Assembly (NCBI GenBank): GCA_965178125.1
Contig: OZ237740.1
Span: 1 to 64,000 of the forward strand
Reading direction: 5' to 3'
Length of the DNA stretch: 64,000 nucleotides
Source of the DNA: Bilabrum cf. latius
Lineage: Eukaryota
Below are positions 1 to 35,704 of the stretch, in pieces. Position 1 is the stretch's first letter. Each line of letters begins with the position of its first letter. Position numbers and translations under genes: made by a program. Below the pieces are notes generated by a model. That model did no database searches and was not told where the DNA came from. It saw only the letters and a program-made list of their open reading frames with translations.

Positions 1-546
1 ACCCTAACCCTAACCCTAACCCTAACCCTAACCCTAACCCTAACCCTAACCCTAACCCTAACCCTAACCCTAACCCTAACCCTAACCCTAACCCTAACCC
101 TAACCCTAACCCTAACCCTAACCCTAACCCTAACCCTAACCCTAACCCTAACCCTAACCCTAACCCTAACCCTAACCCTAACCCTAACCCTAACCCTAAC
201 CCTAACCCTAACCCTAACCCTAACCCTAACCCTAACCCTAACCCTAACCCTAACCCTAACCCTAACCCTAACCCTAACCCTAACCCTAACCCTAACCCTA
301 ACCCTAACCCTAACCCTAACCCTAACCCTAACCCTAACCCTAACCCTAACCCTAACCCTAACCCTAACCCTAACCCTAACCCTAACCCTAACCCTAACCC
401 TAACCCTAACCCTAACCCTAACCCTAACCCTAACCCTAACCCTAACCCTAACCCTAACCCTAACCCTAACCCTAACCCTAACCCTAACCCTAACCCTAAC
501 CCTAACCCTAACCTAACCCTAACCCTAACCCTAACCCTAACCCTAA
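1..546. repeat. Terminal telomere tract (CCCTAA)n / (TTAGGG)n
   Basis: CCCTAA hexamers run from the window start, with one variant unit (CCTAA, a 1-nt deletion) near 511-516. The C-rich strand on + marks a left chromosome end. Confidence 0.98.
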
Positions 547-1863
547 GGTGATGTCAGTCCAGCCAACGAGCTGCACGAGAAAGCGGCCGCACCTCTGCGC
601 GCGCTGCTCCACGCCGGCAGCATCAGTCTCGGCGTGCAGGAGGCTGTCCACGACGACAACGGCGCGCCTCTGGTACGCCCACCAGCGCCGCATGCCTTGC
701 ATGGTCACCGTCTCCATCACTGGAGGTGCGAGCGCCCTCCACACCTCGGGAGGCAGCTCCTGCCTGCCAACGCAGGTCAGCAGGCCCTGCAGGGCCTGCA
801 CCGCCTCGTCGTCCACCTCCCATATGTGGTAGGCCAGCATGGGGTGCTGCGCGAGGTCGTCCGTCGCCTCGTGCATGCCGAACCGGTACTCGGGCGGGAG
901 GTTGACGGCCAGGGCCTCCTCTCCCTGCGCTCCCCCCGGGTCGCCGACGACCAGGTTCCACGCCTGCACGGGTGGCGCACCGACCTCCCCTCCGGCGTCT
1001 GGGCCTGCGCCACCGCCTTGGGCGCCGGCTGCCTCTGCACCGGCAGCGAACACGACTCCGGGGATGGGCAGCTCGGGCGCTCCTCCCTCTGCCCCGAAGA
1101 GCGGCTGCTGGCCCTGAGCATCCCAGACCATGGCCTGCCGAGCTGCCTGGGTGGCCGCGTGGGCGGCTTGGCGCCCGAGGAAGATGGCCTGGACCGCTTC
1201 TGGGGGCTCGTCGTCCTCCATCGCGTCCTCCCCTGCGCCGACCCCGGCCAGGACGGGCACGTCGGCGAGAGGCACGGGCCCAGGGACGAGTTGGTGCTGG
1301 GCAGCCTGGGCAGCTGGCTGCTGCTCGGCTGCTGGAGGGGCCGGACCGACGCCGGCTGGCCCACCTGCAGGCTCCTGCTGGGGCTCCGGGATCGGGAGGA
1401 AGGCGTCGGCATCGCCAGCTGGCGGCTCGGGCTGCAGACCTCCTGGGACCGGCAGGTTGGCACCCGGACCAGCGGGGTGCTGGGGCGGGGCGGCGGCCAT
1501 CGCCTGCTGGCCAGCAGCAAGAGCTGCACCAGGTGGTGGTTGGTGGGCGCCCTCTTGCTGCTGGTGCTGGGGCTCCGGAGCATGCTCGCCGATGGCTGGG
1601 GCGGGGGCCGGCAGGCCTGCCGCATCGCCCCCCCCGGCGGCATGGCCGCCTGGCGCTGGCCCCACCTGGGCCGGGATCTGGGCCTGCGCCTCGCCGGCCG
1701 GCGGGCCAGGCAGGGCGGCACCTCCTGGTTGAAGTGGCCCTGGGACTCCGATGCGCACGCGATGCGGGTTCTGAGCGTAGCCCTTCGCGCGGCGGTCCAG
1801 GAAGGCCCGGAGGTAATCGAGAGCCTTCACATGCTTGGTGGCGTCGTACGTGGACTGCGCCAT
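547..1863 (-). CDS. Cassette ORF1, unknown Ala/Pro/Gly/Gln-rich protein, 3'-truncated by telomere repeats
   Basis: ATG at 1863 with strong GC3 codon bias. Globular-looking N- and C-terminal parts flank a low-complexity middle. The frame runs straight into TTAGGG (...GWTDIT-LGLGLG) with no stop of its own. Confidence 0.7.
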
Positions 1864-2437
1864 GACCAGACTGCGGACAGAGATGCCACAAGGATATATA
1901 ATATACTTGGGATGTGATTAGTATGATGGTACGATGCGTTGTTCCCTGGTGGCGCACTCGTCACGGCGGTGCCGCGCATCAGGTTCCGCAACCTGATCCG
2001 GGCCACCACAAATGTTGTCGCAGCACACCTGCCGCAAGCAAAGTGAGCATTGGGCGCGCAGCCTATATATCGCCGCGCAATTGTTTGCAGTATGTTATAT
2101 TATTTGATAATATGCGCGAGATTAGTTCCAACGAGTGCTTGCCGTCGCGCAATTGAGCCAAACGTCTGAACCACGTTGCAGCAAGCGCATTGCGCGAGGC
2201 AATCCCCACGCATACCCCATCGATTTGACTCACGTTTGCTTTAGGGTTGTATGCACAATATGCTATAGTAGCTATATGCCAAGTATGCGCCTCTGCAATT
2301 GAATACAAGGAGCGCAATATGAGTGTTTCTGATTTCGCGCTGCTCGTTGGGTGAACGGGTAGGTTTCGGCGTGACAAGTGCAAGTTGCGTGCACTTTTGA
2401 TGCGAATCTGTATTTTTTTTTCGGTTTCGCGTGGGTT

Positions 2438-2517
2438 GCTGTGGTGGTGGAGTGGTATTGCGTACGGTTGGTAATCGCACCCCGGCCTACCCCCGAGGTT
2501 CGATTCCCGTTGGGGCG
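2438..2517 (+). ncRNA. tRNA-like RNA polymerase III unit (degenerate cloverleaf, apparent anticodon GGT)
   Basis: A-box TGGTGGAGTGG at 2445-2455 and B-box GGTTCGATTCC at 2497-2507. A 5-bp stem closes the 7-nt loop TTGGTAA (2468-2474), and oligo-T runs begin at 2522. Acceptor and T stems are imperfect. Confidence 0.6.
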
Positions 2518-2748
2518 ATCATTTTTTTATTTTTTTTCTGGGCTGGAGTCCGTCCCCCCACGACTGGAGAGCCGACCCAACATCATGGGTCCCAGGTCTG
2601 AGGCCGAGTGGGCGGGGTCGTGGCCTTTTTTTTTTTTTTGTCCTCGAGCTTGCCCTGGAGTACCTCTAGGTCTCGTGTCCGTGTTCCCTGCCGCACTCAA
2701 GCGCCTGTTCGTGACCTCACCTGTGTTCCCCTGTCACCGCAGAGTACC

Positions 2749-4302
2749 ATGGCCGCCGCAAAGAGCTACAGCGTCAAGCACACCAGCAAGTCTCGCCCTG
2801 TCGTGGCCGCCCTGGCTTCAGGCGTCGCCACGTCCGCGGCCAAGCAGGTCCTGCTGATCTCCCTCGTGGGCCTCCACCAAGACTGTGGGCTGCTCTGCGG
2901 GTCTACGGAGCACTACGAAGGGACCAAGAAGGCGGGCATCAAGGCCTGTGTGGATGCCATCCTGGCGCTGGATGAGTCCAAGCTGCCGTCTGGCGTGCTC
3001 GAGTCGCTGAACCGTCGCCTGTACCCGGCTGCATCAACCAGCGGCTCCAGCTCGCCAGGCTTTCGGAAGATGAAGCAGCTGCTCATGGGCCTGCGCGACA
3101 GCGGCTATTCAACCAACCACAATCCTTGGTTCAAGGCAGGCATGGACGGCCTGCGGAGGAACTACAAGACCGTGCTCAAGTTCGTCTGCGACCACGGAGC
3201 TGGGAAAGCCTCTGTGCGTGGTCGTGGAGGCATGCAGGCTGTCTTCAAGGACATGCTCGAGTTGCCGGTTGACGACTCTGCCGAGGCTTCAGCACGAGAT
3301 CAAGGTGGTTCTTCGGGAGCCGCTGCTGCCATGCCGAGTAGTGCACCCCGTACGCGGAAGGGCAAGCGGAGTGCCATGGACGACGACGACGACGACGACG
3401 ACGAAGATGACGTGGAGCACAGAGCCTATACGGCCCGGAGGGAGCAGGGCGGGATGGGTCGGGACGACTCAGAGTCCAGCGACTCAGCGACCGAGCGACT
3501 GAACAACGAGCTACTCGGCCCCAAGCGAGCGGCGGAGGCCGAGAGAAAGGCCAAGGCAAAGGCCAAGCTCAGCGCCAGGACCAAGGCCGCGGGCAAGTCG
3601 AAGGGCAAGTCGAAGGGCAAGTCGAAGGGCAAGTCGAAGGGCAAGTCGAAGGGCAAGGGTGCCCGATCGGCAGAGCCGAAGGGCAGGCACGCTGAAGCCG
3701 CGCCTCCGGCTAAGATGCAGCCCAAGCGATTGCCCGTCCTCCAGCCGGGCTATGGCGGAGGAGCTCGCCGCGCCGATGACCAGGAGAAGAGGGGAGCAAG
3801 TGGCGCAAGGAGTGGAGCAGCAGCATCACTGCCTCGACAGGACTCTGAGGAAGATGAAGAGGAGATCCGTGGTCGGTACCACGCAGACGCAGCCGGAGAG
3901 GAGGACGAGGATGAGGCTCCGATAGGGCTCGTGCAGCAGGACGAGGAGGATGGAAACGAGCTGGATGAGGAAGAAGATAACGAGGCCCAGAACCAGCAAG
4001 ACGACTCTGAGAACGACGGTGGAGTGGAGGACAACGGCTTCACCGACTAGCAGCGGCACCTGGTGGACCGCATCCTCACTGCCTGCGATGACACCGCGCT
4101 GGGCGTCAGCCGGACTATCGACGACATGGTCGAGGACGTGCAGGAAACAATTCAAGAGAGGGACCACGGATTGGGCATGCTCGCAGACCTGATGACGGCC
4201 CTCGAGAAGACGGCGGAAGGAGATCTCAATGCGGCAGACGTGGACGCTGTGGAGGCTCTCCTGGCAGCTGTCGGTGCGGAACCCTCCTCCGATGACGAGT
4301 GA
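2749..4302 (+). CDS. Cassette ORF2, unknown ~517-aa protein with acidic and basic low-complexity tracts
   Basis: ATG at 2749. The TAG at 4048-4050 is followed in frame by 83 more codons of the same bias, ending at TGA 4300-4302. Contains poly-Asp/Glu tracts, (KSKG)5 and a helical C-terminus. Confidence 0.75.
3592..3657 (+). repeat. 12-bp coding tandem repeat (GGCAAGTCGAAG) x5.5 encoding GKSK
   Basis: Perfect repeat visible inside ORF2. Confidence 0.95.
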
Positions 4303-4604
4303 AAAGCAGCCAATCGGATGGCAATTGAGGTCAGTGGCAGCTGGGCCAGCTTGTGAGAGGAGTTTGCCAATGTGCCAGCCAGTGACCCGTTAGGACGGAA
4401 TAGTAGGAGCCAAGAGGCATTCTGTTTAGTCTTGACTATAAGCCAACGAATATCTGCTATTAATACAATCCTCCAAAAATAAACCACTGCCATAAACATA
4501 ATCTCAACAGAACTACTGACTATCAAACGACTATCATCACAAAGACATGATTCCCATATTTTGAACGTGACATTATCAAGTGACCCCGATGACATCAAAG
4601 AGAT

Positions 4605-6247
4605 TTTTGCACCATGTTGTGGCCCTAGGCCGTCCCAATGCCGTTTGAACGGTCTTCATATCTCCTGTAGTTGCCGAGATCGTATCCCGCAGGATTTCAG
4701 CATGAAAATCTTCAAGGCCCAATATTGGCGCCGCGCGTCAAAAACGGAACCTGGGGAACATTTGCCCCATGTTGTGGCCCTAGGCCGTCCCAATGCAATT
4801 TGAACGGTCTTCATATCTCCTGTAGTTGCCGAGATCGTATCCCGCAGGATTTCAGCATGAAAATCTTCAAGGCCCAATATTGGCGCCGCGCGTCAAAAAC
4901 GGAACCTGGGGAACATTTGCCCCATGTTGTGGCCCTAGGCCGTCCCAATGCAATTTGAACGGTCTTCATATCTCCTGTAGTTGCCGAGATCGTATCCCGC
5001 AGGATTTCAGCATGAAAATCTTCAAGGCCCAATATTGGCGCCGCGCGTCAAAAACGGAACCTGGGGAACATTTGCCCCATGTTGTGGCCCTAGGCCGTCC
5101 CAATGCAATTTGAACGGTCTTCATATCTCCTGTAGTTGCCGAGATCGTATCCCGCAGGATTTCAGCATGAAAATCTTCAAGGCCCAATATTGGCGCCGCG
5201 CGTCAAAACCGGAACCTGGGGAACATTTGCCCCATGTTGTGGCCCTAGGCCGTCCCAATGCCGTTTGAACGGTCTTCATATCTCCTGTAGTTGCCGAGAT
5301 CGTATCCCGCAGGATTTCAGCATGAAAATCTTCAAGGCCCAATATTGGCGCCGCGCGTCAAAAACGGAACCTGGGGAACATTTGCCCCATGTTGTGGCCC
5401 TAGGCCGTCCCAATGCAATTTGAACGGTCTTCATATCTCCTGTAGTTGCCGAGATCGTATCCCGCAGGATTTCAGCATGAAAATCTTCAAGGCCCAATAT
5501 TGGCGCCGCGCGTCAAAACCGGAACCTGGGGAACATTTGCCCCATGTTGTGGCCCTAGGCCGTCCCAATGCAATTTGAACGGTCTTCATATCTCCTGTGG
5601 TTGCCGAGATCGTATCCCGCAGGATTTCAGCATGAAAATCTTCAAGGCCCAATATTGGCGCCGCGCGTCAAAAACGGAACCTGGGGAACATTTGCCCCAT
5701 GTTGTGGCCCTAGGCCGTCCCAATGCCGTTTGAACGGTCTTCATATCTCCTGTAGTTGCCGAGATCGTATCCCGCAGGATTTCAGCATGAAAATCTTCAA
5801 GGCCCAATATTGGCGCCGCGCGTCAAAAACGGAACCTGGGGAACATTTGCCCCATGTTGTGGCCCTAGGCCGTCCCAATGCCGTTTGAACGGTCTTCATA
5901 TCTCCTGTAGTTGCCGAGATCGTATCCCGCAGGATTTCAGCATGAAAATCTTCAAGGCCCAATATTGGCGCCGCGCGTCAAAAACGGAACCTGGGGAACA
6001 TTTGCCCCATGTTGTGGCCCTAGGCCGTCCCAATGCAATTTGAACGGTCTTCATATCTCCTGTGGTTGCCGAGATCGTATCCCGCAGGATTTCAGCATGA
6101 AAATCTTCAAGGCCCAATATTGGCGCCGCGCGTCAAAAACGGAACCTGGGGAACATTTGCCCCATGTTGTGGCCCTAGGCCGTCCCAATGCCGTTTGAAC
6201 GGTCTTCATATCTCCTGTAGTTGCCGAGATCGTATCCCGCAGGATTT
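4605..6247. repeat. 155-bp tandem repeat, about 10.6 near-identical copies
   Basis: A 155-bp period is visible in the sequence and in the ORF-track offsets (4671, 4826, 4981...). Only a few variant sites differ (GCCGTTT/GCAATTT, AAAAACGG/AAAACCGG, CTGTAG/CTGTGG). Confidence 0.98.
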
Positions 6248-6309
6248 TGTCAAAATTCGAAGATGAAAATATTTTTTCCCCGACCCTGTCCCTGACTTTA
6301 TATTAGATA

Positions 6310-8439
6310 CCCTAACCCTAACCCTAACCCTAACCCTAACCCTAACCCTAACCCTAACCCTAACCCTAACCCTAACCCTAACCCTAACCCTAACCCTAAC
6401 CCTAACCCTAACCCTAACCCTAACCCTAACCCTAACCCTAACCCTAACCCTAACCCTAACCCTAACCCTAACCCTAACCCTAACCCTAACCCTAACCCTA
6501 ACCCTAACCCTAACCCTAACCCTAACCCTAACCCTAACCCTAACCCTAACCCTAACCCTAACCCTAACCCTAACCCTAACCCTAACCCTAACCCTAACCC
6601 TAACCCTAACCCTAACCCTAACCCTAACCCTAACCCTAACCCTAACCCTAACCCTAACCCTAACCCTAACCCTAACCCTAACCCTAACCCTAACCCTAAC
6701 CCTAACCCTAACCCTAACCCTAACCCTAACCCTAACCCTAACCCTAACCCTAACCCTAACCCTAACCCTAACCCTAACCCTAACCCTAACCCTAACCCTA
6801 ACCCTAACCCTAACCCTAACCCTAACCCTAACCCTAACCCTAACCCTAACCCTAACCCTAACCCTAACCCTAACCCTAACCCTAACCCTAACCCTAACCC
6901 TAACCCTAACCCTAACCCTAACCCTAACCCTAACCCTAACCCTAACCCTAACCCTAACCCTAACCCTAACCCTAACCCTAACCCTAACCCTAACCCTAAC
7001 CCTAACCCTAACCCTAACCCTAACCCTAACCCTAACCCTAACCCTAACCCTAACCCTAACCCTAACCCTAACCCTAACCCTAACCCTAACCCTAACCCTA
7101 ACCCTAACCCTAACCCTAACCCTAACCCTAACCCTAACCCTAACCCTAACCCTAACCCTAACCCTAACCCTAACCCTAACCCTAACCCTAACCCTAACCC
7201 TAACCCTAACCCTAACCCTAACCCTAACCCTAACCCTAACCCTAACCCTAACCCTAACCCTAACCCTAACCCTAACCCTAACCCTAACCCTAACCCTAAC
7301 CCTAACCCTAACCCTAACCCTAACCCTAACCCTAACCCTAACCCTAACCCTAACCCTAACCCTAACCCTAACCCTAACCCTAACCCTAACCCTAACCCTA
7401 ACCCTAACCCTAACCCTAACCCTAACCCTAACCCTAACCCTAACCCTAACCCTAACCCTAACCCTAACCCTAACCCTAACCCTAACCCTAACCCTAACCC
7501 TAACCCTAACCCTAACCCTAACCCTAACCCTAACCCTAACCCTAACCCTAACCCTAACCCTAACCCTAACCCTAACCCTAACCCTAACCCTAACCCTAAC
7601 CCTAACCCTAACCCTAACCCTAACCCTAACCCTAACCCTAACCCTAACCCTAACCCTAACCCTAACCCTAACCCTAACCCTAACCCTAACCCTAACCCTA
7701 ACCCTAACCCTAACCCTAACCCTAACCCTAACCCTAACCCTAACCCTAACCCTAACCCTAACCCTAACCCTAACCCTAACCCTAACCCTAACCCTAACCC
7801 TAACCCTAACCCTAACCCTAACCCTAACCCTAACCCTAACCCTAACCCTAACCCTAACCCTAACCCTAACCCTAACCCTAACCCTAACCCTAACCCTAAC
7901 CCTAACCCTAACCCTAACCCTAACCCTAACCCTAACCCTAACCCTAACCCTAACCCTAACCCTAACCCTAACCCTAACCCTAACCCTAACCCTAACCCTA
8001 ACCCTAACCCTAACCCTAACCCTAACCCTAACCCTAACCCTAACCCTAACCCTAACCCTAACCCTAACCCTAACCCTAACCCTAACCCTAACCCTAACCC
8101 TAACCCTAACCCTAACCCTAACCCTAACCCTAACCCTAACCCTAACCCTAACCCTAACCCTAACCCTAACCCTAACCCTAACCCTAACCCTAACCCTAAC
8201 CCTAACCCTAACCCTAACCCTAACCCTAACCCTAACCCTAACCCTAACCCTAACCCTAACCCTAACCCTAACCCTAACCCTAACCCTAACCCTAACCCTA
8301 ACCCTAACCCTAACCCTAACCCTAACCCTAACCCTAACCCTAACCCTAACCCTAACCCTAACCCTAACCCTAACCCTAACCCTAACCCTAACCCTAACCC
8401 TAACCCTAACCCTAACCCTAACCCTAACCCTAACCCTAA
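6310..8439. repeat. Internal telomere tract, 355 x CCCTAA (2,130 bp)
   Basis: Perfect hexamer array in the same orientation as the terminal tract. Confidence 0.98.
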
Positions 8440-8447
8440 CCCCCCCT

Positions 8448-8662
8448 GGTGGCGTGGATGCGTGGGTGGTGGCTGGACAGGGCCATGGATGGTGGCGTGG
8501 ATGCGTGGATGCGTGGGTGGTGGCTGGACAGGGCCATGGATGGGGGGTGTGGATGCGTGGGTGGTGGCCGGACAGGGCCATGGATGGTGGCGTGGATGCG
8601 TGGGTGGTGGCTGGACAGGGCCATGGATGGTGGCGTGGATGCGTGGGTGGTGGCTGGACGGG
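8448..8662. repeat. Subtelomeric G-rich minisatellite, ~43-bp unit, about 4.7 copies
   Basis: Unit GGTGGCGTGGATGCGTGGGTGGTGGCTGGACAGGGCCATGGAT repeats with small indels directly after the internal telomere tract. Confidence 0.93.
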
Positions 8663-8831
8663 TGAGGTCAAATGTATTGTTCAAGTCTATGTGAACACGC
8701 AAGCAAGCCATGGGAGGACAGTCTGAGGTAAACCGGAATTCGTCCACTCGGCTTCACTGCGGACTCGGCTTATGGGCCCCATCCATTGGCATTGGCTTTG
8801 TATACTGTTCGGTTCTTTCGTCGTTATTGCC

Positions 8832-9518
8832 ATGTTGTAGGTCAGAGCACTTGCCATAGCAACAGTGTTGCTGAACGTCTGCCTGGCGGTTGACAGCAAC
8901 ATGAGCAGCGACACCAACACAGCGAATAATACAGCGACAAATAGTACTTCTCATACCAACTGCCCTGCTCGACTGCAAGAGCTGGAATTGGAAGCGTTTA
9001 GTTTACAGCGATAGATTGCGTAGCTCACCGCAGATTTATAGACCAAGCAGCACACACTGGCGGCCAGTGAGCACAAGATTGGCGCGCTGTAGCGGGCCTT
9101 ATAGGAAGCAAAAAAGTCGTTCGGCTAGAGTGGTGGAGTTGGAGACGGAACTGAGCCGGAAAGCAGACACGGATTCAAGCAAGGGCATGCACCACCACCG
9201 TAGCAGGCGCACACTGCATCACTTCGCAGATCTATTGCCGCGTTTCTGTAGCAAGAGCGAGAAAGGTAGCGCCGTAATGACCTGAGCGATGCTGAAGAAG
9301 CAAGAGCAGGGCCGAAGGAAATCTCCATATGGTGTGAGGCTGCACCACGGGTCAACATACTTCCTCTTGACGATGAATCAAGGGACATGGGGGCATGTCT
9401 ATCGCTTGCAATCGGTGCACCGGAGCTTGATGCGCGCCTCGTGCTGCAATGTGACGGTAGTTTTGCGCCTGAAAAGGACGAACGAACAGGCGCTGACAAT
9501 TCTCAAACTGGGGACTGA
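8832..9518 (+). CDS. Hypothetical secreted coiled-coil protein, 228 aa (needs TAG=Gln; absent from the ORF track)
   Basis: ATG 8832 to TGA 9516-9518 with 10 in-frame TAG and no TAA/TGA. It reads as a signal peptide (MLQVRALAIATVLLNVCLA), NxS/T sequons, then a heptad stretch RLQELELEAFSLQRQIAQLTADLQTKQHTLAASEHKIGALQRALQEAKK. Confidence 0.75.
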
Positions 9519-9657
9519 GCTCAGACCACATGGATGGCACCATGCAAGGATATTCGCAACAAATTCAATTGCGTCTTCCGGCAATATATTTTGTTACGTC
9601 GTGTGCTCGGGGTATCCACTCAAAATAGCTGTTAGTCGACTTGCGATGCCAGATAGG

Positions 9658-11469
9658 TCAGGAAGCCGATCCGTATCGCGGCACGGCGGCCAGGACGGAC
9701 TGGAGTCCACGGCGCCGATTCCGACTCGTTCTACCATTTCCCCGCCCTCGATGGCCATGATCTCCATCACTGTCTGGGTCCTTGCGCCGATTGAGCTGAT
9801 CGTGGTGGCCTTCTGCAGCGCTGTCCTCTGCTCGAGCATCCCTGCGGATCCGCGCCCTCAAGAGATCGCTAAGCGACTGGAGCGTCCTTTGGGCCTGCGC
9901 CTCCGCTGCTTCTGCCCTGGTCCTCTGGGCGTCTGCCTCTGCCTCGGCCCGCTGCGCCCTTTCGACAGCCTGCAACGTCTCTGCCCTGCGATCGCAGTAC
10001 ATCTTGCACGCCCGGCCCAGCAGTGCTAGGTACTTGTCCCCCCTGTGCCGCTGGTACGCCAGCTCGGACTCGAGAGCTTCCTTCTCGCTCTGAGCTCGCG
10101 CCCGCTTGGGGTTCCTACTCTCTTCTGAGTCCTGCCCAGCTGCACTGCCACCGGTAGCGTCCTTGTCATCGGGGTCTTCCCTGCTGCGTTTCATCCCGAG
10201 TCGGGTCCTTGGCTAGATCTATGCAGCTTGTGGTGTGTGTTTGGCAGATACCACCTGGCAATCGGCACCCCCCTGCTTGCAGTCCGCTGCAACTTGACGA
10301 CCGGCACCGCTACTCTTGCAGGCAGAACGAGTCGCACCGTGCAGTTTGTTTCCCAGTGGACGGCTGGCCGTGCCAAAGCCAGCTGAGCTACCCCTGATGG
10401 CTGTACTGCTGCTAGCGCTGCTGGAACTGCAATTGCCGGCAAAAGTTTGTACTGCCTTTGCTTCTCGGGCTACTTTACTACTACTGCTTGTAGACGCATT
10501 TTCGCCGTTGCCCGAGACTTCTGACGAGAGCTGTGCTTGTGGCACCTCCACAGGCTGCCTTGGCACTGCCATGGGTGGGTCTACCAATCTCTGCCGCTCA
10601 TTGCAATTTTTGTCCATACCTTTGGGCTGCGGAGCGACCTGTGTCTCTAAAACAGCGGTAGTACCACTTTGACTCGTAGCCCCTCGGCCTGTTTGTTCGC
10701 GGTTCCCATCCACGGCCTATCTGCCAGCTGGCTGCAGGAGCTTGGCGAGGACCAGTGGGAGCTCGTCGTTCGAAGCAGCCCGGCTCAATATAGAGGAAAC
10801 CCTATCTCTAGACGCACGCATCCGCCGTGCGCGGTTCCGGTGCCTGGACCAGCTGGCCTCAGCAGGAATGCGCTCGCCTACCTCTATTGCATCATCGCAA
10901 CCGGAATCTGCAGACTCGTCTGGCTCTCCATCGCTGCCACGTGTGCCGATAACACTCTTGCAACCTCCCACGCCATCAGAACACTCGCCACATCTCTACT
11001 GCGTACGCTTGGAATCGGTAGGAGAACTTGCTTTCAAAGACTCCCAGTCAGCCGCAAGACCCCGTAGGCTCTCCTCGTTCGACGAATCAACCCGGCGCTT
11101 CTTCCACTGGATTGCTACCGAACGCTCAACTGCGTGTGTTAACTCCGCGTCTCCACCTGCACCCTCCAGTTCGTCTAAGTATCTGCCATCCGGCAAGAGC
11201 ATGCAGTCGCTGTCGTCTTCAGCACCTGCCAGCCGCACGCTGGATGCATTCCTTCTCGAGAACGTTTTGCCACTCAGTGAGCTCACAGAATGATTTGCTC
11301 TATGCAAAGAATCGCCCAGGCTGGAATCACGGGACCGCTTTCTTCCAATTCCGGTACCGCAGTACCTGGATGCAGAAAGGACTGGTGTTCTGGCGTCGCC
11401 TGGGCTTGTAGAAGCAGTTTCGGTTGGCTCATCACAATCCATACTACTCGATGAAAACCAATAATTCAT
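9658..11469 (-). CDS. Hypothetical ~603-aa low-complexity protein with C-terminal coiled coil
   Basis: Four track ORFs (10996-11499, 10717-10971, 10219-10713, 9658-10194) share one frame and are joined only by TAG (10996, 10717, 10219, 10213). Ends at TGA. Has NLS-like basic motifs. Confidence 0.75.
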
Positions 11470-22936: not shown

Positions 22937-25900
22937 ATGGCTGTCTCGAAGGATGCTATCACTCGTGGCCTGAAGGATGTTGAAGATCCTGACAAGGATG
23001 TTCGTTACATGGCAATCAGCGATCTTGCAACAGAGCTAGGAAAGGAAGGACAGATCGACCCCCCTACGCAGCGGAGGTTAGTTGCGTTCTTCGCTTGCTT
23101 TATGATGCAGTCTGGAATGAGCTACAGGTTCATCTCCGCTATGAGAGACATGTTGAGTCACTGCATACTGTGATTGTCGTTTTTGGTGCTGTACGACCGC
23201 CTCAATCAACTCGACTGCCTTGTTTGATCCATCACAGGATTACCGCCGCCATCCTTGAGCGCATGGAGAAGGATGACTCTGCAGACGTCCAGACCATTGC
23301 AGTGCGATCGTGAGATTTGTATGCGCATTCCTGTTGCTTATATGCCGAGGATTGAACTGCATTTTCTGGTCCCTGTCTCGTGTTGCGCGTACATTTTGAA
23401 GCGCAGCCTGAAAGAGCTCGTGTCTGGTGCAAGCGAGGACACCGTGACGCAAGTTTGCAACACCCTGGCTACACAACTGGCCCATGGAAAGGCGGAAATC
23501 AGGGACGTTTTTGCAATCGGACTGAAAAAGGTGGTGTCCGAGGTCGAGGACGAGCAGGGCTTCATTGTGATTCGAGCTCTTCTTAAGCCATTGTACGACG
23601 ACGTGCAGGGTGCTCCTGGTGTCTCGCCAGAGGACCAGTCAGGAATCCGGGTAGAGGCGCTTGACGTCTTGAACGAGCTCCTGACGAGGTTCGGAGGCAA
23701 GGTGGTGGAGGCTGGCAGGACCGGGGCTGCCACGGTCTCCGACGCTGCACTTCTCAGCGTGCTCCTGAACCAACTTGGTGGCGCGGAAGCAGATACCCCC
23801 AAGCGTGCCATGCTTGCGCTGTCAGCTCTGTCGGCCCACCTCTCGGACGACTTGCTGCAGAGGCTCATGGACGCCCTGCTGGGAGCGATCGCCGCGGATG
23901 GGAAGCCGGGCGCGGCGTCGGGCGCGGGTGCGGCTGGACAGCCCTCTCGCATGGTTGTGGTGCAGGCTATCGGGGCAGTGTCTCGGCAGGTGGGCTGGAG
24001 GCTCTCTGCTTACCTAGAGCGCGTGCTGCCGCTGCTGGAGGCCGCCATGGGCAGCCCCGACGAGGAGGGCCAGGAGAGCGACGAGGTGTGCGAGCTCAGG
24101 GAGAACTGCCTGCATGCAGTGGAGTCGCTGGCAGAGCGCTGTGCTGCCGACATGGCGCCGCACGTGCCGCGCGTCCGTTCTCTGTGCTTGCGCTTTATGT
24201 CGTTCGATCCGAACTATTCGTACGAAGACGCCGATGATGTCGCAGGGGAAGGAGACGAGGACGAGTTCGACGACTACGGGGACGACGAGTACGGCGGGTA
24301 CGAGATGGACGATGGGGATGGCATGGACGCAGACGAGGACGGCACCTGGAAGGTTCGAAGGGGCGCACTCCGCACTCTGCGGGCGCTGCTGCGCTCACGG
24401 CCCGAGGATGTGAAGGAGTACTTCGACGGTGCAGCGGGTAGCGGCGGATAGTCGCCCGCCGTGCAGCTGCTGGACCGCGTGAAGGAACGCGAGGAGAGCG
24501 TGAGGCAGGACGTGCTGCAGTGCTTGCGCGAGCTGCTGCGGGCCACGGTGGTGGTGGAGGGAAACGCCCGGGTGGCGCTGCCCGCAGCCATCGCGTCTCG
24601 CCTTGGCATCGTCCAGGCCGAGGGAGCAGTGACCGGGTCCATGGGGGCGGCAGGAGGCGTGGGCATGGCCGCAGCAGCAGCTGCCGGCCTGCTGCAGCCT
24701 CCTGTGCTGGTACGGCAGAAGAGCGCGGCAGATCTGCTCGCCGAAGAGGTGGGGCCCGCCACCCTGGAGAAGCTGTCGGCTGAGCTGAGCAAGCCCTCTG
24801 GGCTCAAGCCAGCGACGCGCAGCGCCATGCTGGACGTGCTGCTGAGTCTGCAGAGGGCCGCAGGAGGCGCGCTGGCGGGGTCTGCAGCGCTGACCATCGG
24901 AGCTGGGGTGTCTGCCCTGGGCACGGACAGCTCGCAGGTGCAGCTGGACGGGCTGCGGCTGCTGACCACGTGCATGGAGATGATGGACTCGAGAGACCTG
25001 CTACCGCTGCTGGGCCCCGTGGTGGACCAGGTGACTCGGTGCTGCGCGGGAGAGTGGTACAGGCTCGTGGCAGAGGCCCTGCGCACCGCCGGCCGCATCG
25101 CCCTCGTGCTACGGCCCATGCAGGACGACGGCTCGGCATTCCGAAGCGATGTGCCAGCGCCTGACAGCGCCCAGTGCAGCAAGCTCTTCGATGCCGTGCT
25201 CGCGAGGCTGCGCGAGGTGGACATCGACCAGGAGGTAAAGGAGAGCGCCATCACCGCCTCTGGGCTGCTACTATCCTCCATGGGCGACCTGAGGCCGGGT
25301 GCAGTAGACGAGGTGCTGCCAGTGCTGCAGGAGAGACTCGACAACGAGGTCACTCGGACGGCCACTTTGCGCGCGCTGACCTTCGCAGCCACCTCCCCTG
25401 CCGCGCTCGACCTGAAGAAGCACGTGCCTGCGGTGCTGGACAAGGTCGCCGCCTTGCTGCGGCAGAAGAGCAGGCAGGTCCGCCAGTCCTCTCTCGCTGC
25501 TCTCGACGCGCTGCTCAGCAAGCACGCCGACGCCTCGGTCGCAAAGGGCCTTGAGCCCGTGCTGCAGAGCACCGCCGCCATGGTGGATGCCAGCGACGCA
25601 TACCTCGCCCAGTTGGCCCTGAGGGTTGCGGTGGACGCGCTCCGGGCGGGACCGGCCGCGGCGGCGCATGTGAAGTCCTACATCCAGCCCAGGGCGCTGC
25701 AGCTGTCGGCTTCGCCCCTGGTGCAGGGGTCCGCGCTCCGCGCACTGCGGAGCTACTTCGAAGCGGCTGTGGAGGTGGGAGGGGCTGCCGCGGTTGGCGC
25801 ACTTGCTGACGCTATCGTGCAGCAGGCGGCAGCTGGGTCTGGTGGTGCGTCTGGCGGGGCAGCCTCCGGGGCTGGTGCAGGAGGAGGGGACGAGGGGGAG

Positions 25901-27387
25901 CAGGCAGGCTCTCCCCGCCGCCAAGGCCTGCTCAACGCAGCCAGGTGCCTGGCATCTGTAGCGAAAGCCGGGGGCAGCGCGGCAAGCGGGATCCTCAAGC
26001 GCTTCTCGGATGACGCTGCTGCTGCTGCGGCCAACCCGTCGGCGTGCTCGCAGTCGCAGCTGCTGTCTGTCACGTCGATCGGCGAGTGTGGGGCCGAAGG
26101 CCTGCTCGCAGGCGATGCTCAGAAGCGCGCTTTCGACTCGCTCATGTCCAGCATTGAGGGAGACGCCGAGGACCTGAAGTCGGTGGCCAGCATCGCGCTT
26201 GGTGCCCTGATCGTAGGGTCCACGAGCGAAGCCTTGCCCGCCTTCCTCGCCCGCCTCAGCAAGGACGACAGCGCTGACAACTACTACCTGCTGTCTGCCC
26301 TGCGGGAGTGCCTGGAGAGGCATGCCCCGGCGACGCAATCGGGCCCTGATTTCAGCCCGGTCGCCGGCAAGGTCCTGCCAATTCTTGCATCCAAGGCGGA
26401 AACTGAAGATGAGGGAATCCGCAACATGGTTGCCGCATGCCTCGGCCTGCTCGCCGCCGCATCGCCCGGCGAAGTGTTCCCTCGCGTCACCGGCATGGCT
26501 TCTGATGGCGCCAGCAGCCCCGGACTTCGATGGGTGGCTTGCACTTCTGTGCGCTTCGGCGTGACGGCAGCTGGGGCGGGGCCATTCGCAGGTTGTGACT
26601 GGAAGCCATTCTTGGCGCTGTTGCATGACGCCGATCTGTCCGTCCGCCATGCAGCACTTCTGACCCTCGGTGCTCTGATCCAGCACGCTCCGAGCTCACT
26701 GCGCAGCACCCTTCGGCTGACAGAATGCAAGATTCCTCTTGAGGCAGAGCCTGAAGTGGATTTGGATGGGGTCGGAGTTTTGCCGCTCCTCTACTATGAG
26801 ACTGCAAGGCACGCTGGCCGTGTTCGCAAGGTGCAGTTGGGGCCGTTCAGCCATGAAATTGACGATGGCCTACCCCTCCGCAAATCAGCCTTCTCTGCTT
26901 TAGATGCGTAAGATCACGCGTAACTCGTATGCGCTTGCACCTCTATCTTAACTCTGCCAGTCCTATCCGCTCGATCTCAAGAACACCAACGCATCGCAGG
27001 ATCTTTACATTCATGAGCGACAGGGCTGACAGTGCGTTCCTCCCAGCTCTGTGCAAGGGACTGCAAGATCCCGCTGATGACGTTATTTTGCTTACGCATC
27101 ATACTCTTCTCAAGCTGATCTCCAACAAGTTTTGGCAGATTCGCGTTACTGCTGCCATCGACGATGTTGTCGAAGGATTGAAGCGCCCCTTCGATGCTTT
27201 GGCCACCGGCAAGAAGAGCAAGATGCCGGGCAATGACGTGCTGCGGTCATCCCTTCGAGTCGTTGATTCAATTTAGTCAAATTGCAAGGAAGCAATGTCA
27301 ACTGCGAAGTTTGAAGCAGTTTTGCAGCAGATTGACTCTATCCCCAAAACGAAGGAAATGCTTGCAGACATTCGGTCAGGTCCTTGA
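22937..27387 (+). CDS. CAND1: Cullin-associated NEDD8-dissociated protein 1 (HEAT repeats)
   Basis: Motifs DKDVRYMAISDL, ELRENCL, DPNY, WKVRR, KEREESVR, DIDQEVKE, RLDNEVTR, EGIRNMVA and GPFSHEIDDGLPLRKSAF. Three GT-AG introns. TAG at 24449 and 27274. TGA at 27385-27387. Confidence 0.96.
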
Positions 27388-28679
27388 CCATTTGGATCAG
27401 GCTAAATTCTTCTTGTCTGATTGAATTGGAGAGGCTATCTGTAATGCTTTATGTGGATCAAGCAGTCACAATCAAATCAGGTATTTATGAATCAAGATAT
27501 TTTCAATCAATGGGATCAAATAGCGCATTTGGTAAAAATATTTCCCTGAACTATATTTTTCTTGCCGTTCTGTTTGTTGCCCAAGTAGTCATGAATGAGG
27601 AGCATACTTACACATGGTTTGAGCGAACATGCGAGTACTGGGCCTATGACTTGAATCGTGGCCGTCGTAGATCTGACGCCTATTGTTTCCATTCGAAAAA
27701 CGTTTCGTGTTATTGCGGCATTTGTGATATGGGCTACATGGAACGGATCTGCCCCAAACTCTTAACTTTTGAAGATTAATTTAGATTTTACATAATATTT
27801 AAGGTGCCGTGTTTCGATAAATTCGAATTATCTAGGCACACAACATCGCAAAACTCACGTACAATTGAAATATCTAGACTAATTAGGGATATTTTGTGTG
27901 GTTAGCTATTTTGTTTGGAATAAATTATGATCTGTGTGGGTTTGGGATATGATTTAGAACAATAGGATAGAAGTTAGCGATTTGTTGGCTCGAAATGTAC
28001 TTTTTGGCATGGCAAAGGTCAAATTGCTATTCCAGCACGCCCACGTCTGATTGTCAGCATCTTGTGCCCAAGCACTGCTCCTCGACCGTATTCTTAATCC
28101 TGGGGACTTGAAGCTTTCTACCTTATCGCTGCAAGCAAATCAATCTTATTTGATTTTGTTATTTCTTACTGCATGTTCTTGCGGTTGATCTATTTGGTGA
28201 CAAAAGTACAGTAATAATATCTTTATAAAGAATCGGATGTAGTTATTCTGGAAAAAGTCGTATTGTCATAATCAATCGTCATCATCACCTTCGAGACCTC
28301 GCCTTGGACCCTCGCCCAAAACTAGTTCTCTGTGGCACTTATCGAGACTTCTGAGCTGAGTTAGGATGATCCAGAAACACCCATACCCCGCCGTGGTGGG
28401 GTTGTTGCGCAACTAAAGCTCCTGGAGCCTCGGGCTCGATACCCAGAGGAGGGCTTCCCGACCATCGGCATGCAAGCTCCTTTCCGATTCCGGCTCTGTG
28501 CAAACTATTGCCAGTTCAATATCCACCGGAGGCCTCGCGCGTTCTCCAACACAGGCAAGACGACAGCTCCATGTACTCTGCTTATAGAGATTAATTATTC
28601 TGAATGCATAATTATATATATTGTTTGCCAGTACCATTGCTTGAAATATGCGGGATTCAATCTTTAATGCCAATTTCAT

Positions 28680-31127: not shown

Positions 31128-34100
31128 GGGGATCTGATATTTTGTGGACTCAACTCAAAAGCGCACGCTATCACGAAGAAACATCTGGAACGAGGGCCCG
31201 GGACCTACCAGACTTCACGCTTCAGCTGCAATGGCCTAAACCACCTAAGCTCCACCCTGGGGACCCATTTCCCCCTGGGGAGCGTCAGCGTTCACGTTCC
31301 CTCCGGCGCCCGCTGCCGGCACCCCGTCCTGCTGCCCGTTCTGAGCCAACCCTGCCTTGACGTTGGCGATCGCCACGGCGAGGTTGTTGTTTTCGGCTGC
31401 CCCTACAGCCAGGCTGGCAAAGTCCTCCCGGACCGCCCTTGCGAGCGCCCGTTTGGCCTTCGCTGCAGCCCTCCTCGATCCCTTCGAGACAAAATCGAGG
31501 ATCCTTGAGTGGTCCTGCATGACCCGTGAGTACATAGTGTGGTACACACGCTGTTCCCCGCGCACGTGCTGGTGCTAGGCGGCAACGGAGAGGCGAGCCT
31601 TTGCCACAGAAGACCACGAGAGGCGTGCGTTGGCCGGACGAGTCGAAACCCGCCGCCCTTTGTCCTCCTACCTCTTCTTCCGCAACTTGTCGAGCACCTG
31701 CAGGAACTCGACCGACTTCTCCCCGATTCCCCCCAACACGTCCACCACAAAGGGTACGACCCGCACGCCACTGCGTACCGCCCCTTTCTGCGTCCTCACG
31801 GTCCCAGGACACCACTTGTCTTCTCCTCCGATCCGGACGCCGAGCGCTCCGAGGTCGACGGGCCTGCCGTAGCTGGCCAGCTTCGTGGCATGCGCGGCCC
31901 GCAAAGCAGACCCCTCTTGCCAGTCGCTGCCAATCCTCCACGACGAGCGGTCCCACCGGTAAGTTGCCGCAGTGGAATCAACCACCGTGACATCGATGAG
32001 ATAAGCCGTCCCCTCGTGCTCAAAGAACAGGTCGCCGCGTGGCACGAGCGGACCGCGCCGACCCGGCAGCCGGGCCACTTGGCCCTCTGGCTCCCGGATA
32101 GGGCGTCTGCCCGTGGCCTCGCGGACCACCTGCTCGAGCACGTTGAGCACCCGGAAGTGCCTGCGGCCTGGAAGGCCTCCGCAGACACGCTTGTCCTTGC
32201 ACGTGGCACCGTGGCGAACTGACTAGATCAGTTCGACTACCTTGCCCTGCTTCCGGCACCCCGGGCAGATCTGCGTGACGCGCCACGCCTCCCCACATGC
32301 ACCGTGCGTTGCCCCAAGAGGTTGTGGGGGACAGCTGCACGGCTATGGGATGGCGAGACGCTGGCAGAACATGCCCCGGGCATCTTCAGGCTGGACTCGG
32401 CTCAGGACAGAGAGCGGCGCATGCAGCCAAGACCCGGCTCCTTGGGACCTGGCGGCGCGGATTGTGGCTCGCGCCACTCCTGCGTACTCTCTGGTGACTG
32501 CATCGACTGGAGCGAGTCTGTCGTGCGCAAGCGGAGATGAGGCATCCCAGAGGAGCCTCTCCACCTGCACTCGCTCAGCCAGTGCCGTCACATGGCTCTG
32601 GTTGTGCCCTCCTGCGGCACCTTCGAGAAAACGAATAACCGCCTGCGATGCGGTGGGTGCCGGCTGCTCCCCAGCCAGCTGCCTCGTCACCCATGCCCGA
32701 AGGTCCTTCACCTCCAGGCGCCAGGGTTCAGTGGCCCCACCGCACAGCTCCATACGGGCTGCCTTCTCGGCTGGGCTGCCCAGGAGTTCCGAAGTGCGGG
32801 CTGTGTCCCACACCATACCATAGCGTGGGGGGACGTCAGCCTCCGGAACAAGTGGAAGCAACGGACTCGGGAAACCAGCCATCCCGAAATTGTCTTGCTT
32901 CCCCTCTTGTACGAGTCTCCCGTACTTCGAGATTGCGGTCATCACCGTGTCCACAAGGGAGTTCAGGCGCGCGGTGCGCCCTCGCAGTGGGTTCAGCAGA
33001 GGGGGTGCCTCCCCGGCACCTGCCGCCGCACCTTCCCCGACCTCCTCCGCCGGGTCCCACTGGTTGAGCGCCACCTGCAGGTGTGGCAGGTTGAAATCGC
33101 GTGCTACCCTCGCCAACCAAGGCCACACATCCAACAACCCCCCGACGCACATTGCCTCCCGGGTTAAATCGGCAGGCACGAGCCCCACTCCGAGACCCCC
33201 ACGGGCAACGGATAGCGGACCCAGCACGTCCAACACCTGTCTCTGGGCCTGCGAGAGAGCGCTTACACGCATCCCTGTCAGGAACTCCAGAAACGCTCCC
33301 TACACTTCCTTCAAGTGGGGTGTCACCCCGTCCTTAAGCTCGGGCAAGAGGCACCCGCTCCTGTGCACGTGCGTCCACGCCGGCACTACGCACCGGGCAA
33401 ACAGTGCGCGCGCACTGATTGGGTCCAGGTAGGCCAGGCGAAAAGCCTGGACCACCGTCTCTTCCAAGCGTCCCTTCAAGACTTGTTCGGCCACTCCGAC
33501 TTCGGTCCCTACCGGGACGCCCAGGATCCTCAGCCCATGCTCGTGGACCACTCCTTCGAGCCTATCCTCCTGGTCTGGCGCCAATAGGTGGACCAGGCGC
33601 TAATAGGTGGCTCGGGAGGGGGAGAAGAACGACGTTTTCTTCTAGTTGAGGGAGAGGCCGACGTCCCCCAACTTCCCCTCCAACGTGGCGATGGCTGCCC
33701 TGACATTATCTAGCTCCCCCAACAGGAACACGTCGTCAAGGTACGCTACTAGGTACACATCCATGTGGGCAATCTTTGTCGCTTTCAGAGCGCCCTAAAT
33801 GGCTGCGCAGAACAGCGCTGGAGACAATGGCGACCCCTACAGCACCCCCTCCAGGTTCTGCACAAGCTCTGTTCCATCCTCGCCAGACACAACACCATGT
33901 ACTGCGTGCTGCAGACACTGGTGTACGTAAGTGCCCAGTCCGGTGGACAGCGACGCCAAAGCTTGCAAGGTCGCCTTCCGATGGATGGAGCCATATGCAT
34001 CCGAGGCATCCAGCGCAGCGACCACCCACTCAGGGTTAGCGCTGAGAAGAACCTGGATCGTTGCAATGGCTCCGTCCATCCCGCACTTGAGCCCCGCCCC

Positions 34101-35698: not shown

Positions 35699-35704
35699 CC
35701 AGCC

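Follow-up and report, generated by a model that had tools for sequence, protein, structure and literature searches.

A gene-bearing cassette between two telomere tracts at a chromosome end in a TAG-recoded protist

Organisation of the chromosome end

We analysed a window of 64,000 nucleotides (positions 1 to 64,000) at a chromosome end, in which the order from the tip is a telomere tract of (CCCTAA)91, a cassette at 547-6308, a second and perfect tract of (CCCTAA)355, the chromosome's own 43-bp repeats and then ordinary genes. The outer, terminal tract (1-546, plus strand) comprises 91.2 CCCTAA units with 99% matches, represents the C-strand reading inward and holds a single imperfect unit at about 506-517. 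Directly next to it lies ORF1 (547-1863, minus strand), 439 codons of a Pro/Ala/Gly/Gln-rich orphan protein without a stop codon, separated from the divergent ORF2 by a spacer (1864-2748) in which CGCG-rich and AT-rich words are intermixed. ORF2 (2749-4302, plus strand) runs to 517 residues when the TAG at 4048-4050 counts as sense, and TGA is its stop. It is followed by an AT-rich gap (4303-4605, GC of about 0.43), a satellite of 10.6 units of 155 bp (4606-6247, plus strand, 98% matches), which is non-coding since 155 is no multiple of 3, and a 61-base end consisting of a decayed satellite unit (6248-6308, plus strand), which adjoins the inner telomere at 6308/6309.

The inner tract (6309-8442, plus strand) comprises 355.7 CCCTAA units with 100% matches in the same orientation as the outer one, amounting to 2134 bases with no deviation in 355 units. 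Past it, 4.7 units of a 43-bp G-rich repeat (8447-8659, plus strand) form the chromosome's own telomere-adjacent sequence, with ordinary genes next; housekeeping Pfam families were found in 7 of the 10 ORFs tested in this flank, which identifies it as ordinary chromosome. All features that an earlier note, made from the sequence alone, had claimed in 547-6309 were found in their places, and both junctions, which it had called sharp, are exact to the base. The two junctions are known from this assembly alone; the comparison with contigs of four public runs described below excludes 520-554 and 6303-6340. Compared with the other 55 kb of the window, the cassette had no similarity to anything, including an RT-encoding element at 31215-35960 that is intact and has TAG as a sense codon.

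Within the spacer, words resembling an A box and a B box can be recognised by eye at 2436-2520 (plus strand), followed by T runs. The same note had called this a tRNA-like unit; as a tRNA gene it failed both ARAGORN, which found no tRNA gene in the whole window, and Rfam, which returned no tRNA among four matches at E≤1 in 1-10000. ARAGORN called the stretch only with the score threshold set to 80%, beside three weak calls in the same 885 bases, and its fold was no better than that of shuffles (z of 0.36). It is possibly a decayed tRNA or a SINE-like pol III unit. The four Rfam matches (E of 0.62) all lie in the satellite and were discarded as chance matches of a frameshift-element model. The word CGCGCAATTG has two exact occurrences in the spacer; with 6 matches versus 4.98 expected, the window as a whole shows no enrichment of it.

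Cassette genes and the genetic code of the host

The N-terminal part of ORF2 is helical and is followed by acidic and basic low-complexity runs. A Pfam search (E≤0.1) assigned no family to ORF1 or ORF2, and none was found for P0004 and P0005, two homologues of ORF1 from a public contig of 12,766 bases. RT, helicase, recombinase, transposase and capsid or other viral domains were absent from the retained 5.76 kb as well as from P0005, in agreement with the earlier note, which had recognised no RT, helicase, recombinase or capsid motif in either ORF. Homologue searches yielded only P0004, P0005 and P0006, all encoded on that single contig; P0006, an 87-aa fragment, was the sole relative of ORF2 among 1.84 billion representatives. 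Scans of IMG/VR with P0002, P0003 and P0005 gave no relative, the satellite word did not occur there, and the JGI metagenomes, IMG/VR and GTDB contigs scanned held neither a relative nor the satellite word.

Searching a protein language-model atlas gave no usable match for P0005. For the N-terminus of ORF2 the nearest neighbours were unnamed phage proteins (score of 0.91, recognition of 1805, below the mark of 2300), a match that shuffled proteins can also reach. Single-sequence AlphaFold models were unusable (mean pLDDT of 46.7 for residues 1-185 of ORF2 and 41.8 for the last 157 residues of ORF1).

The host reads TAG as a sense codon. When TAG is treated as sense, the number of ORFs of at least 250 aa in 8400-64000 rises from 20 to 34, and the longest of them (4016 aa, with a UCH domain) contains 27 TAG codons. 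TGA ends 11 of 13 host ORFs. The frame of the host gene CAND1 stops at TAA, which cuts its TIP120 domain; since reading through gave no clear continuation, an intron is likelier there than TAA as sense. In homologues, TAG positions are matched by E/Q, Y/E and V, a mixture that does not settle the encoded residue. Literature on protist lineages gave no match; Mesodinium rubrum was excluded, as no telomeres had been found in it, and a metamonad study offered nothing on the code.

The same code applies to the cassette. GC content by codon position in ORF2 is 0.76/0.39/0.73 after the in-frame TAG versus 0.43/0.44/0.43 after the TGA, so that the coding pattern persists for 83 codons past the TAG, up to the TGA, and it is the host's code that reads the gene, as the earlier note had proposed. 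GC3 is 0.78 and 0.74 in the cassette ORFs versus 0.44-0.78 in the 13 host ORFs. Both cassette genes have a host-like codon composition, and ORF2 uses TAG as sense like the host.

These measurements bear on the reading that the cassette is foreign DNA (viral, from a linear plasmid or from some other cultured organism) with its own TTAGGG ends, which we consider very improbable. TAG is rare in the cassette ORFs (1 of 957 codons versus 100 of 14,473 codons in the 13 host ORFs), as might suit foreign DNA, but CAND1 is equally TAG-poor (1 TAG in 1213 codons), so TAG scarcity is not diagnostic of foreign origin, and we dropped that argument, the frame after the TAG being coding as well. That both ORFs are orphans fits foreign DNA, as would the phage proteins next to the ORF2 N-terminus had that language-model match not fallen within the shuffled-protein range; GC3 inside the host range, the coding GC retained after the ORF2 TAG and the lack of an IMG/VR relative of P0002, P0003 or P0005 speak against it.

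Chromosome healing within ORF1 and other copies of the block

The outer telomere truncates the 3' end of ORF1 at 546/547, so that the gene lacks a stop codon and its frame stays open into the repeats, giving a translated tail of ...WTDITLGLGLG. P0004 is 97% identical to residues 1-369 of ORF1, and P0005 overlaps its last 35 residues at 94% and then continues for about 297 residues past the junction. In all four public runs, contigs over ORF1 carry further letters to the left of 555 (343, 343, 2940 and 236), more than a collapsed hexamer repeat could yield, so these contigs reach across the breakpoint; in other copies at least 2.9 kb follows the break, and a contig of 3916 letters in run X5 reaches beyond ORF1. 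Since the tract interrupts ORF1 and the gene is longer elsewhere, the outer tract as assembled is a neotelomere inside a gene: its outward repeats directly abut unique sequence at a point where an intact copy goes on. Telomere repeats were added directly to a break within ORF1, that is, by chromosome healing. The junction shows no telomere seed, the G strand reading ...ATCACC and then directly TTAGGG, which counts against the joined-fragment explanation given below. The suggestion that the cassette is the remnant of something larger, capped by a telomere, was thereby borne out, ORF1 being cut by the outer tract and longer in other copies. Whichever account of the inner junction is correct, chromosome healing in this lineage has a real marker in the truncated ORF1 with its telomere cap.

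Words of the cassette are present in public sequencing data: 11 rows in 6 studies have at least a twentieth of them, and there was no RNA run among the listed holders. In the contigs of four of these runs the block is present as several sequence variants per run, together with deletion forms that omit 3107-3474 and 1870-2234. Two contigs of run X1 cover 3822-3983 at depths of 382 and 240, and position 3868 is covered by four contigs in X2 and three in X6. Depth in the bin 4420-4614 drops to 2.76, 64.3, 0 and 0 in the four runs; other copies diverge from the window in the AT-rich gap, where contigs of X2 end loosely at 4452 and 4456. In X1 and X2 the words of the satellite are about 17 times as deep as the unique part, with variant units present; contig cover is lacking over 4810-5394 and 5785-5979, and we draw no reading from these parts of the satellite. 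The 12,766-base contig carries a frame-shifted ORF1 and an ORF2 that diverges past residue 76, a pattern suggestive of decay or mosaic duplication. The block is also present in this lineage as longer copies without the truncation, in several variants, and on the best reading the cassette is the terminal fragment of a repeated, lineage-specific host block in which ORF1 and ORF2 lie back to back beside the 155-bp satellite.

The copy in the window differs from those in the runs: its letters at 591, 634 and 1261 were found in no contig of the four runs. As these letters are private, the window copy has diverged from the common copies, and the inner tract has not. The recent move of an older copy and a mis-join fit this divergence equally.

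A repeated block at such a place could also be a telomere-associated element, self-mobile or Y'-like, which is possible in principle and in our view improbable. It might be a Y'-like subtelomeric unit that spreads by recombination through the internal telomere tract, or else the 3' remnant of a large Terminon- or Helitron-like element that had its enzyme genes in the lost distal part, its fixed ...TATATTAGATA end attaching to telomere repeats and its other end being truncated and recapped. It is correspondingly unlikely that a Y'-like gene-bearing subtelomeric element of a recoded protist hops from end to end and leaves the telomere tract internal, and doubtful that telomere-primed break-induced replication or the attachment of a larger element used ...TATATTAGATA|CCCTAA as an attachment site. 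The several variants and internal deletion forms of the family would agree with an element, as would an estimate of about 14-16 units in X1 and X2 if the rarest variants are single-copy (570 versus about 36 in depth, and 212-256 versus about 15-16), which is a hint, as depth is not copy number. The position distal to an internal telomere tract, as in yeast Y', and telomere-like hexamers 14 bases from the inner junction also agree with it. The other copies reach at least 2.9 kb beyond the break, where more of an element could lie, but neither the retained part nor the 297 further residues of P0005 have an RT, helicase, transposase or viral domain. The host does possess an intact RT-encoding element at 31215-35960, which also speaks for an element; the cassette has no similarity to it or to the remaining 55 kb of the window, and a divergent gene pair around a spacer misfits a single sense transcript inserted by target-primed reverse transcription. 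The ORFs of the 12,766-base contig, frame-shifted in one case and departing in the other, also count against an element, and no second telomere-flanked copy was seen. The candidate new telomeric element of the earlier note, taken as a self-mobile unit, therefore found no backing in any RT, helicase, recombinase or capsid signal or in an IMG/VR relative, and the divergent pair around its spacer is like ordinary genomic DNA and unlike the cDNA of a single transcript.

Origin of the inner junction and comparison with known systems

As the best explanation, held tentatively and at slightly less than even confidence, we propose that part of a host repeat family became joined to a telomere already in place, or was copied onto it, and that telomerase healed the outer end of the added fragment. 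At its inner end (...TATATTAGATA) the fragment would have been attached to the tip of this chromosome's telomere, otherwise normal and of full length. By one route, a broken or telomere-less end would have been joined to this telomere by end-joining, after which the fused chromosome would have broken within ORF1 and telomerase would have healed the break. By the other, break-induced replication, the telomere would have invaded a telomere tract lying internally next to a further copy of the block and copied outward. Since the inner 2.1-kb tract is perfect, we infer that the joining event was very recent. On this best reading the cassette, whose retained part encodes no machinery, is the cargo of repair and no mobile element. 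In the assembly, a non-telomeric end does lie on the distal tip of a telomere whose tract leads into its own subtelomere, which is the arrangement expected of an end fusion.

It is quite possible, at a lower probability, that the assembly is chimeric at 6308/6309, the outer telomere and the cassette being the healed end of another chromosome or haplotype. One long read of two molecules, read serially or ligated, the second beginning at this chromosome's natural end, would then have extended the contig past the real telomere; the neotelomere in ORF1 would remain genuine and the join at 6308/6309 would be an artefact. From the outer tip inward each tract reads CCCTAA, as two C-strand reads from chromosome ends would, and the inner one is perfect over its full telomere length (2134 bases, no deviation). 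A family of many variants means that other reads could have polished the cassette, and ORFs intact over 439 and 517 codons place it above raw single-read quality, which argues the other way. The private letters at 591, 634 and 1261, absent from contigs of all four runs, suit a chimera as well. The junction, on the other hand, has no adapter-like sequence, and the 61-base end is genomic, since contigs of X1 carry it at a depth of 391 (with three substitutions and one deletion). The C-rich hexamers CCCCGA, CCCTGT and CCCTGA occupy 6278-6295, 14 bases from the inner junction, and there are about six such sites in 55 kb on both strands; the join therefore lies just past the satellite and by three telomere-like hexamers of the same strand, where random shear would rarely fall.

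Two further observations concern the inner tract. A perfect tract of whole-telomere length is what a chimeric read from a natural end gives, and no single molecule was seen across 6308-8443, the comparison runs being contigs; both count against the joined-fragment explanation.

Should the structure be real, it would be a natural, very recent pair of textbook end-repair events lying side by side, a telomere-spanning join and an in-gene neotelomere in a protist with TAG as sense. It would show the copying of subtelomeric gene families onto new chromosome ends and provide an internal telomere tract of 2.1 kb that could be followed in culture for its stability. A mis-join would instead call for a flag on the assembly, with the true chromosome end at 6309 and the cassette belonging to another end.

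Among known systems, yeast Y' elements encode a helicase, have a constant distal boundary and short internal tracts, and spread by recombination without an enzyme of their own. The cassette may be compared with Y' as a gene-bearing unit of a multi-copy family between a terminal telomere and an internal tract; the tract itself is there, and each run shows several variants of the block as contigs, no other telomeric copy having been seen. Unlike in Y', its distal boundary is a broken ORF, and it has no helicase (Pfam, E≤0.1). TRAS/SART, HeT-A/TART and Athena/Terminons have as their hallmarks an RT, or dependence on one, and a transcript-sense layout. The cassette resembles them in being flanked by telomere, with one end that may be fixed and another that may be truncated to varying extents and recapped, and differs in consisting of two divergent orphan genes and a promoter-like spacer, without an RT. 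No RT was found in ORF1, ORF2, P0004 or P0005, nor any similarity to the RT element of the window, and there was no capsid, polymerase or terminase by Pfam and no IMG/VR relative to indicate a telomere-integrated virus.

In Magnaporthe oryzae (PMC7367193), which provides a precedent for the proposed events, chromosome ends undergo truncation and de novo telomere formation, with capture or duplication of sequence at ends by NHEJ or break-induced replication, and 19 of 24 healing events had a seed of 1-4 nt. As in M. oryzae, an internal tract arises once something is placed distal to a telomere (PMC7367193). The internal tracts of that fungus are made by RT-encoding MoTeR retrotransposons and have at most 18 units (PMC7367193), unlike the cassette described here, with its 355 units, no RT and no visible seed. 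Long internal telomere tracts are described there as highly unstable, three or more units promoting breaks; this instability is a point against the joined-fragment explanation (PMC7367193).

In human cancer genomes (PMC11293586), neotelomeres occur, as do telomere-spanning arm fusions that contain 650-1750 bp of inverted CCCTAA repeats, so that either half of the proposed event has a precedent there; compound events consist of a neotelomere followed by a fusion. Unlike the cases in that account (PMC11293586), both events lie here 5.8 kb apart at a germline or clonal protist end, the fragment comes from a repeated family, and the structure is known from the assembly alone. The likeness is twofold: as at cancer neotelomeres (PMC11293586), the repeats sit directly on a break in unique sequence, here ORF1, and as in cancer arm fusions (PMC11293586), a non-telomeric end lies on the tip of a telomere that leads into the arm, with a comparable tract length of 2134 bp.

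The chromosome end and its flanking genes

The left edge of the window is a chromosome or contig end, and begins with an outer telomere tract (1-546, CCCTAA x91, with a single imperfect unit near 506-517) that is separated by 5762 bases of non-telomeric DNA from an inner tract (6309-8442, CCCTAA x355, with zero deviations). Directly inside the inner tract lies a G-rich 43-bp repeat (8447-8659, x4.7), sequence that belongs to this chromosome next to its telomere and bears no relation to the 155-bp satellite of the cassette. Ordinary eukaryotic genes follow to its right, with Pfam families in 7 of the 10 long ORFs scanned (UDP-GlcNAc pyrophosphorylase type, CAND1, tetraspanin, M14 carboxypeptidase, RING finger, cytidylyltransferase and acid phosphatase), and the flank also encodes a 4016-residue ubiquitin hydrolase. 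The inner tract, being followed by this repeat and by ordinary genes, is therefore at the normal telomere position, with the cassette outside it.

TAG is a sense codon in the host (8400-64000). When it was read through, the number of ORFs of at least 250 aa in this region went from 20 to 34, and 27 in-frame TAG fell within the ubiquitin hydrolase. Across 13 long host ORFs we counted 100 TAG in 14,473 codons, with TGA as the stop in 11 of 13 and TAA in 2 of 13; the homologue residues opposite host TAG were E/Q, Y/E and V.

The flank further contains a reverse transcriptase (RT) ORF (31215-35960, minus strand, 1581 codons; RVT_1, E 4.3e-17), open only with 25 in-frame TAG as sense and with neither TGA nor TAA inside. 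This is apparently an intact retroelement fitted to the host code, and no similarity was found between it and the cassette. The CAND1-like ORF (23273-26911) stops at a TAA with its TIP120 domain barely started (profile positions 9-51 of 166), GC falling to about 0.42 beyond the stop (26900-27500); a short intron rich in AT, or a shift of frame, probably explains the stop, which would then not mark the real end of the gene. Two in-frame coding repeats were also seen: the ubiquitin hydrolase has a Gly-Ala run encoded by a microsatellite at 37597-37742 (GGTGCT x24), and the RING-finger protein has a minisatellite at 54733-54893 (48-bp unit x3.4).

Genes of the cassette

The earlier note described a gene-bearing cassette flanked by telomere, and this anatomy was confirmed in the sequence. 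The cassette (547-6308) comprises ORF1 (547-1863, minus strand, 439 codons, without a stop, its frame directly entering the outer tract), an 885-base spacer, ORF2 (2749-4302, plus strand, with a single TAG at 4048-4050 and a TGA end) and, downstream in order, an AT-rich gap, the 155-bp satellite (x10.6) and a 61-base end. The only match between it and the other parts of the window is 26 bases long. GC by codon position in ORF2 was 0.66/0.49/0.74 before the TAG, 0.76/0.39/0.73 after it and a flat 0.43/0.44/0.43 past the TGA; since the coding-like pattern persists past the TAG and is lost past the TGA, ORF2 is read with the host code, as had been proposed. GC3 was 0.78 for ORF1 and 0.74 for ORF2, inside the host range (0.44-0.78). 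The tRNA-like stretch (2436-2520) did not prove to be a tRNA: neither ARAGORN nor Rfam called one there, ARAGORN reporting one at relaxed threshold only, beside other weak calls, and the fold was no better than that of shuffles.

Both ORFs are orphans. ORF1 is rich in Pro, Ala, Gly and Gln, and ORF2 has a helical N-terminal part followed by poly-Asp and a KSKG repeat (12 bp x5.6). Pfam gave no family for ORF1, ORF2 or two ORF1 relatives (P0004 and P0005), searches of JGI metagenomes and IMG/VR yielded no relatives, a language-model protein atlas gave no usable neighbour, and single-sequence AlphaFold models (pLDDT 46.7 and 41.8) were too poor for a fold search. Nothing in the cassette genes pointed to an RT, helicase, recombinase or capsid, in agreement with the earlier inspection for such motifs.

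The ORF1 break and other copies of the block

The two ORF1 relatives were retrieved by protein search among 8000 scored candidates. P0004 (413 aa) has 97% identity to ORF1 residues 1-369. Beyond these its reading frame changes on the same DNA, and the tail corresponds to the window's alternative frame. In P0005 (332 aa), residues 1-35 align at 94% with the final 35 of ORF1, and 297 more residues follow. Both share one 12,766-base contig with P0006, the sole ORF2 relative among 1.84 billion representatives (95% over ORF2 residues 1-78, then diverging). This other sampled copy looks decayed or mosaic, with a frame shift in ORF1 and different sequence in place of ORF2 beyond residue 76.

Contigs of four public sequencing runs (X1, X2, X5 and X6) were aligned to window 520-6340, with 520-554 and 6303-6340, around the two junctions, masked. 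In all four, the ORF1-covering contig overhangs on the telomere side beyond its aligned part, by 343 letters each in X1 and X2 (1199-letter contigs), 2940 in X5 (3916-letter contig) and 236 in X6. Because a hexamer repeat cannot yield such overhangs in short-word contigs, we infer that these copies continue as unique sequence past the break. The outer tract is thus telomere that was added to a break within a gene. On the G strand the outer junction reads ...ATCACC and then immediately TTAGGG, with no telomere seed visible. The break in ORF1 was healed by telomerase.

Copies of the block form a repeated and variable family. Parts of the cassette occur in 11 rows from 6 studies, the best of which share only 0.64-0.67 of sampled words, and the window copy differs from all four runs at 591, 634 and 1261. 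Over 3822-3983, X1 has two diverged contigs, at depth 382 (4 differences) and depth 240 (14), and X5 likewise has two; position 3868 is covered by four contigs in X2 and three in X6. Deletion forms lack 3107-3474 (X1, X2) or 1870-2234 (X6). Other copies diverge from the window 3' of ORF2, where bin 4420-4614 has depths of 2.76, 64.3, 0 and 0 in the four runs and X2 shows two distinct continuations, at 4452 and 4456. Word depth of the 155-bp satellite is about 17 times that of the unique part (X1, X2), with variant units present, and the 61-base end was found in X1 at depth 391. The rarest variant contigs make up about 1/14 to 1/16 of summed depth (X1, X2), which hints at a family size of the order of 14-16, although depth is not equal to copy number.

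The earlier interpretation therefore stands in part. A remnant later recapped by telomere agrees with an ORF1 that is cut by the outer tract and continues in other copies, but a new telomeric element cannot be concluded from the retained part, which lacks an enzyme and is laid out as a divergent gene pair flanking a spacer, the other sampled copy seeming decayed or mosaic. We consider Y'-like spread via an internal tract, or a larger element with enzymes beyond the break, to be improbable.

Origin of the arrangement and described chromosome-end events

The most likely origin takes two steps, the healed break in ORF1 that is shown above and a proposed attachment to a telomere tip. Both tracts have the same polarity, so the inner join (6308/6309) is not a telomere-to-telomere fusion; as assembled, it joins a non-telomeric end to a telomere tip, and would be the place where the fragment's other end met the telomere of this chromosome. 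A block fragment attached in this way, with its outer end healed by telomerase, is the reading that we tentatively favour. Along one simple path, a block-bearing chromosome end would lose its telomere just past the satellite and fuse to this chromosome's telomere, and the fused chromosome would then break within ORF1 and be healed there; along another, break-induced replication would set out from this telomere once it had invaded an internal telomere tract adjoining another block copy. No variant unit occurs in the 2134 bases of the inner tract, against a divergence of roughly 0.5-2.5% between the cassette and every other copy seen; the attachment would thus have to be much more recent than the divergence of the copies.

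A chimeric long read that switches molecules at 6308/6309 would create an identical arrangement, two tracts of like polarity with the inner one perfect and of full length. Its first molecule would extend from the healed end of another chromosome up to a shear at 6308, and its second would begin at this chromosome's natural tip. Weighing slightly against such a mis-join, nothing resembling an adapter is present at the join, the last 61 bases are genomic, and the join falls just beyond the satellite. Three consecutive C-rich hexamers that resemble telomere repeats (CCCCGA CCCTGT CCCTGA, 6278-6295) lie 14 bases away on the C strand of the telomere, where they make up one of about six (CCCNNN)x3 sites in 55 kb of non-telomeric sequence (both strands). 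We regard a chimeric join as a doubtful but serious possibility.

An attached and healed fragment has described counterparts. A study of human cancer genomes describes telomere-spanning arm fusions that make 650-1750 bp of CCCTAA internal, in the same geometry as the inner join here, with neotelomeres documented alongside (PMC11293586). A study of Magnaporthe chromosome ends describes truncations at which telomeres form de novo, as well as sequence captured and duplicated by NHEJ or BIR, and reports long internal telomere tracts to be unstable (PMC7367193). Such instability argues that the event here is either very recent or an artefact. The arrangement is not categorically new: it is either an assembly join or a known kind of chromosome-end rearrangement, combining a neotelomere with an internalised telomere.
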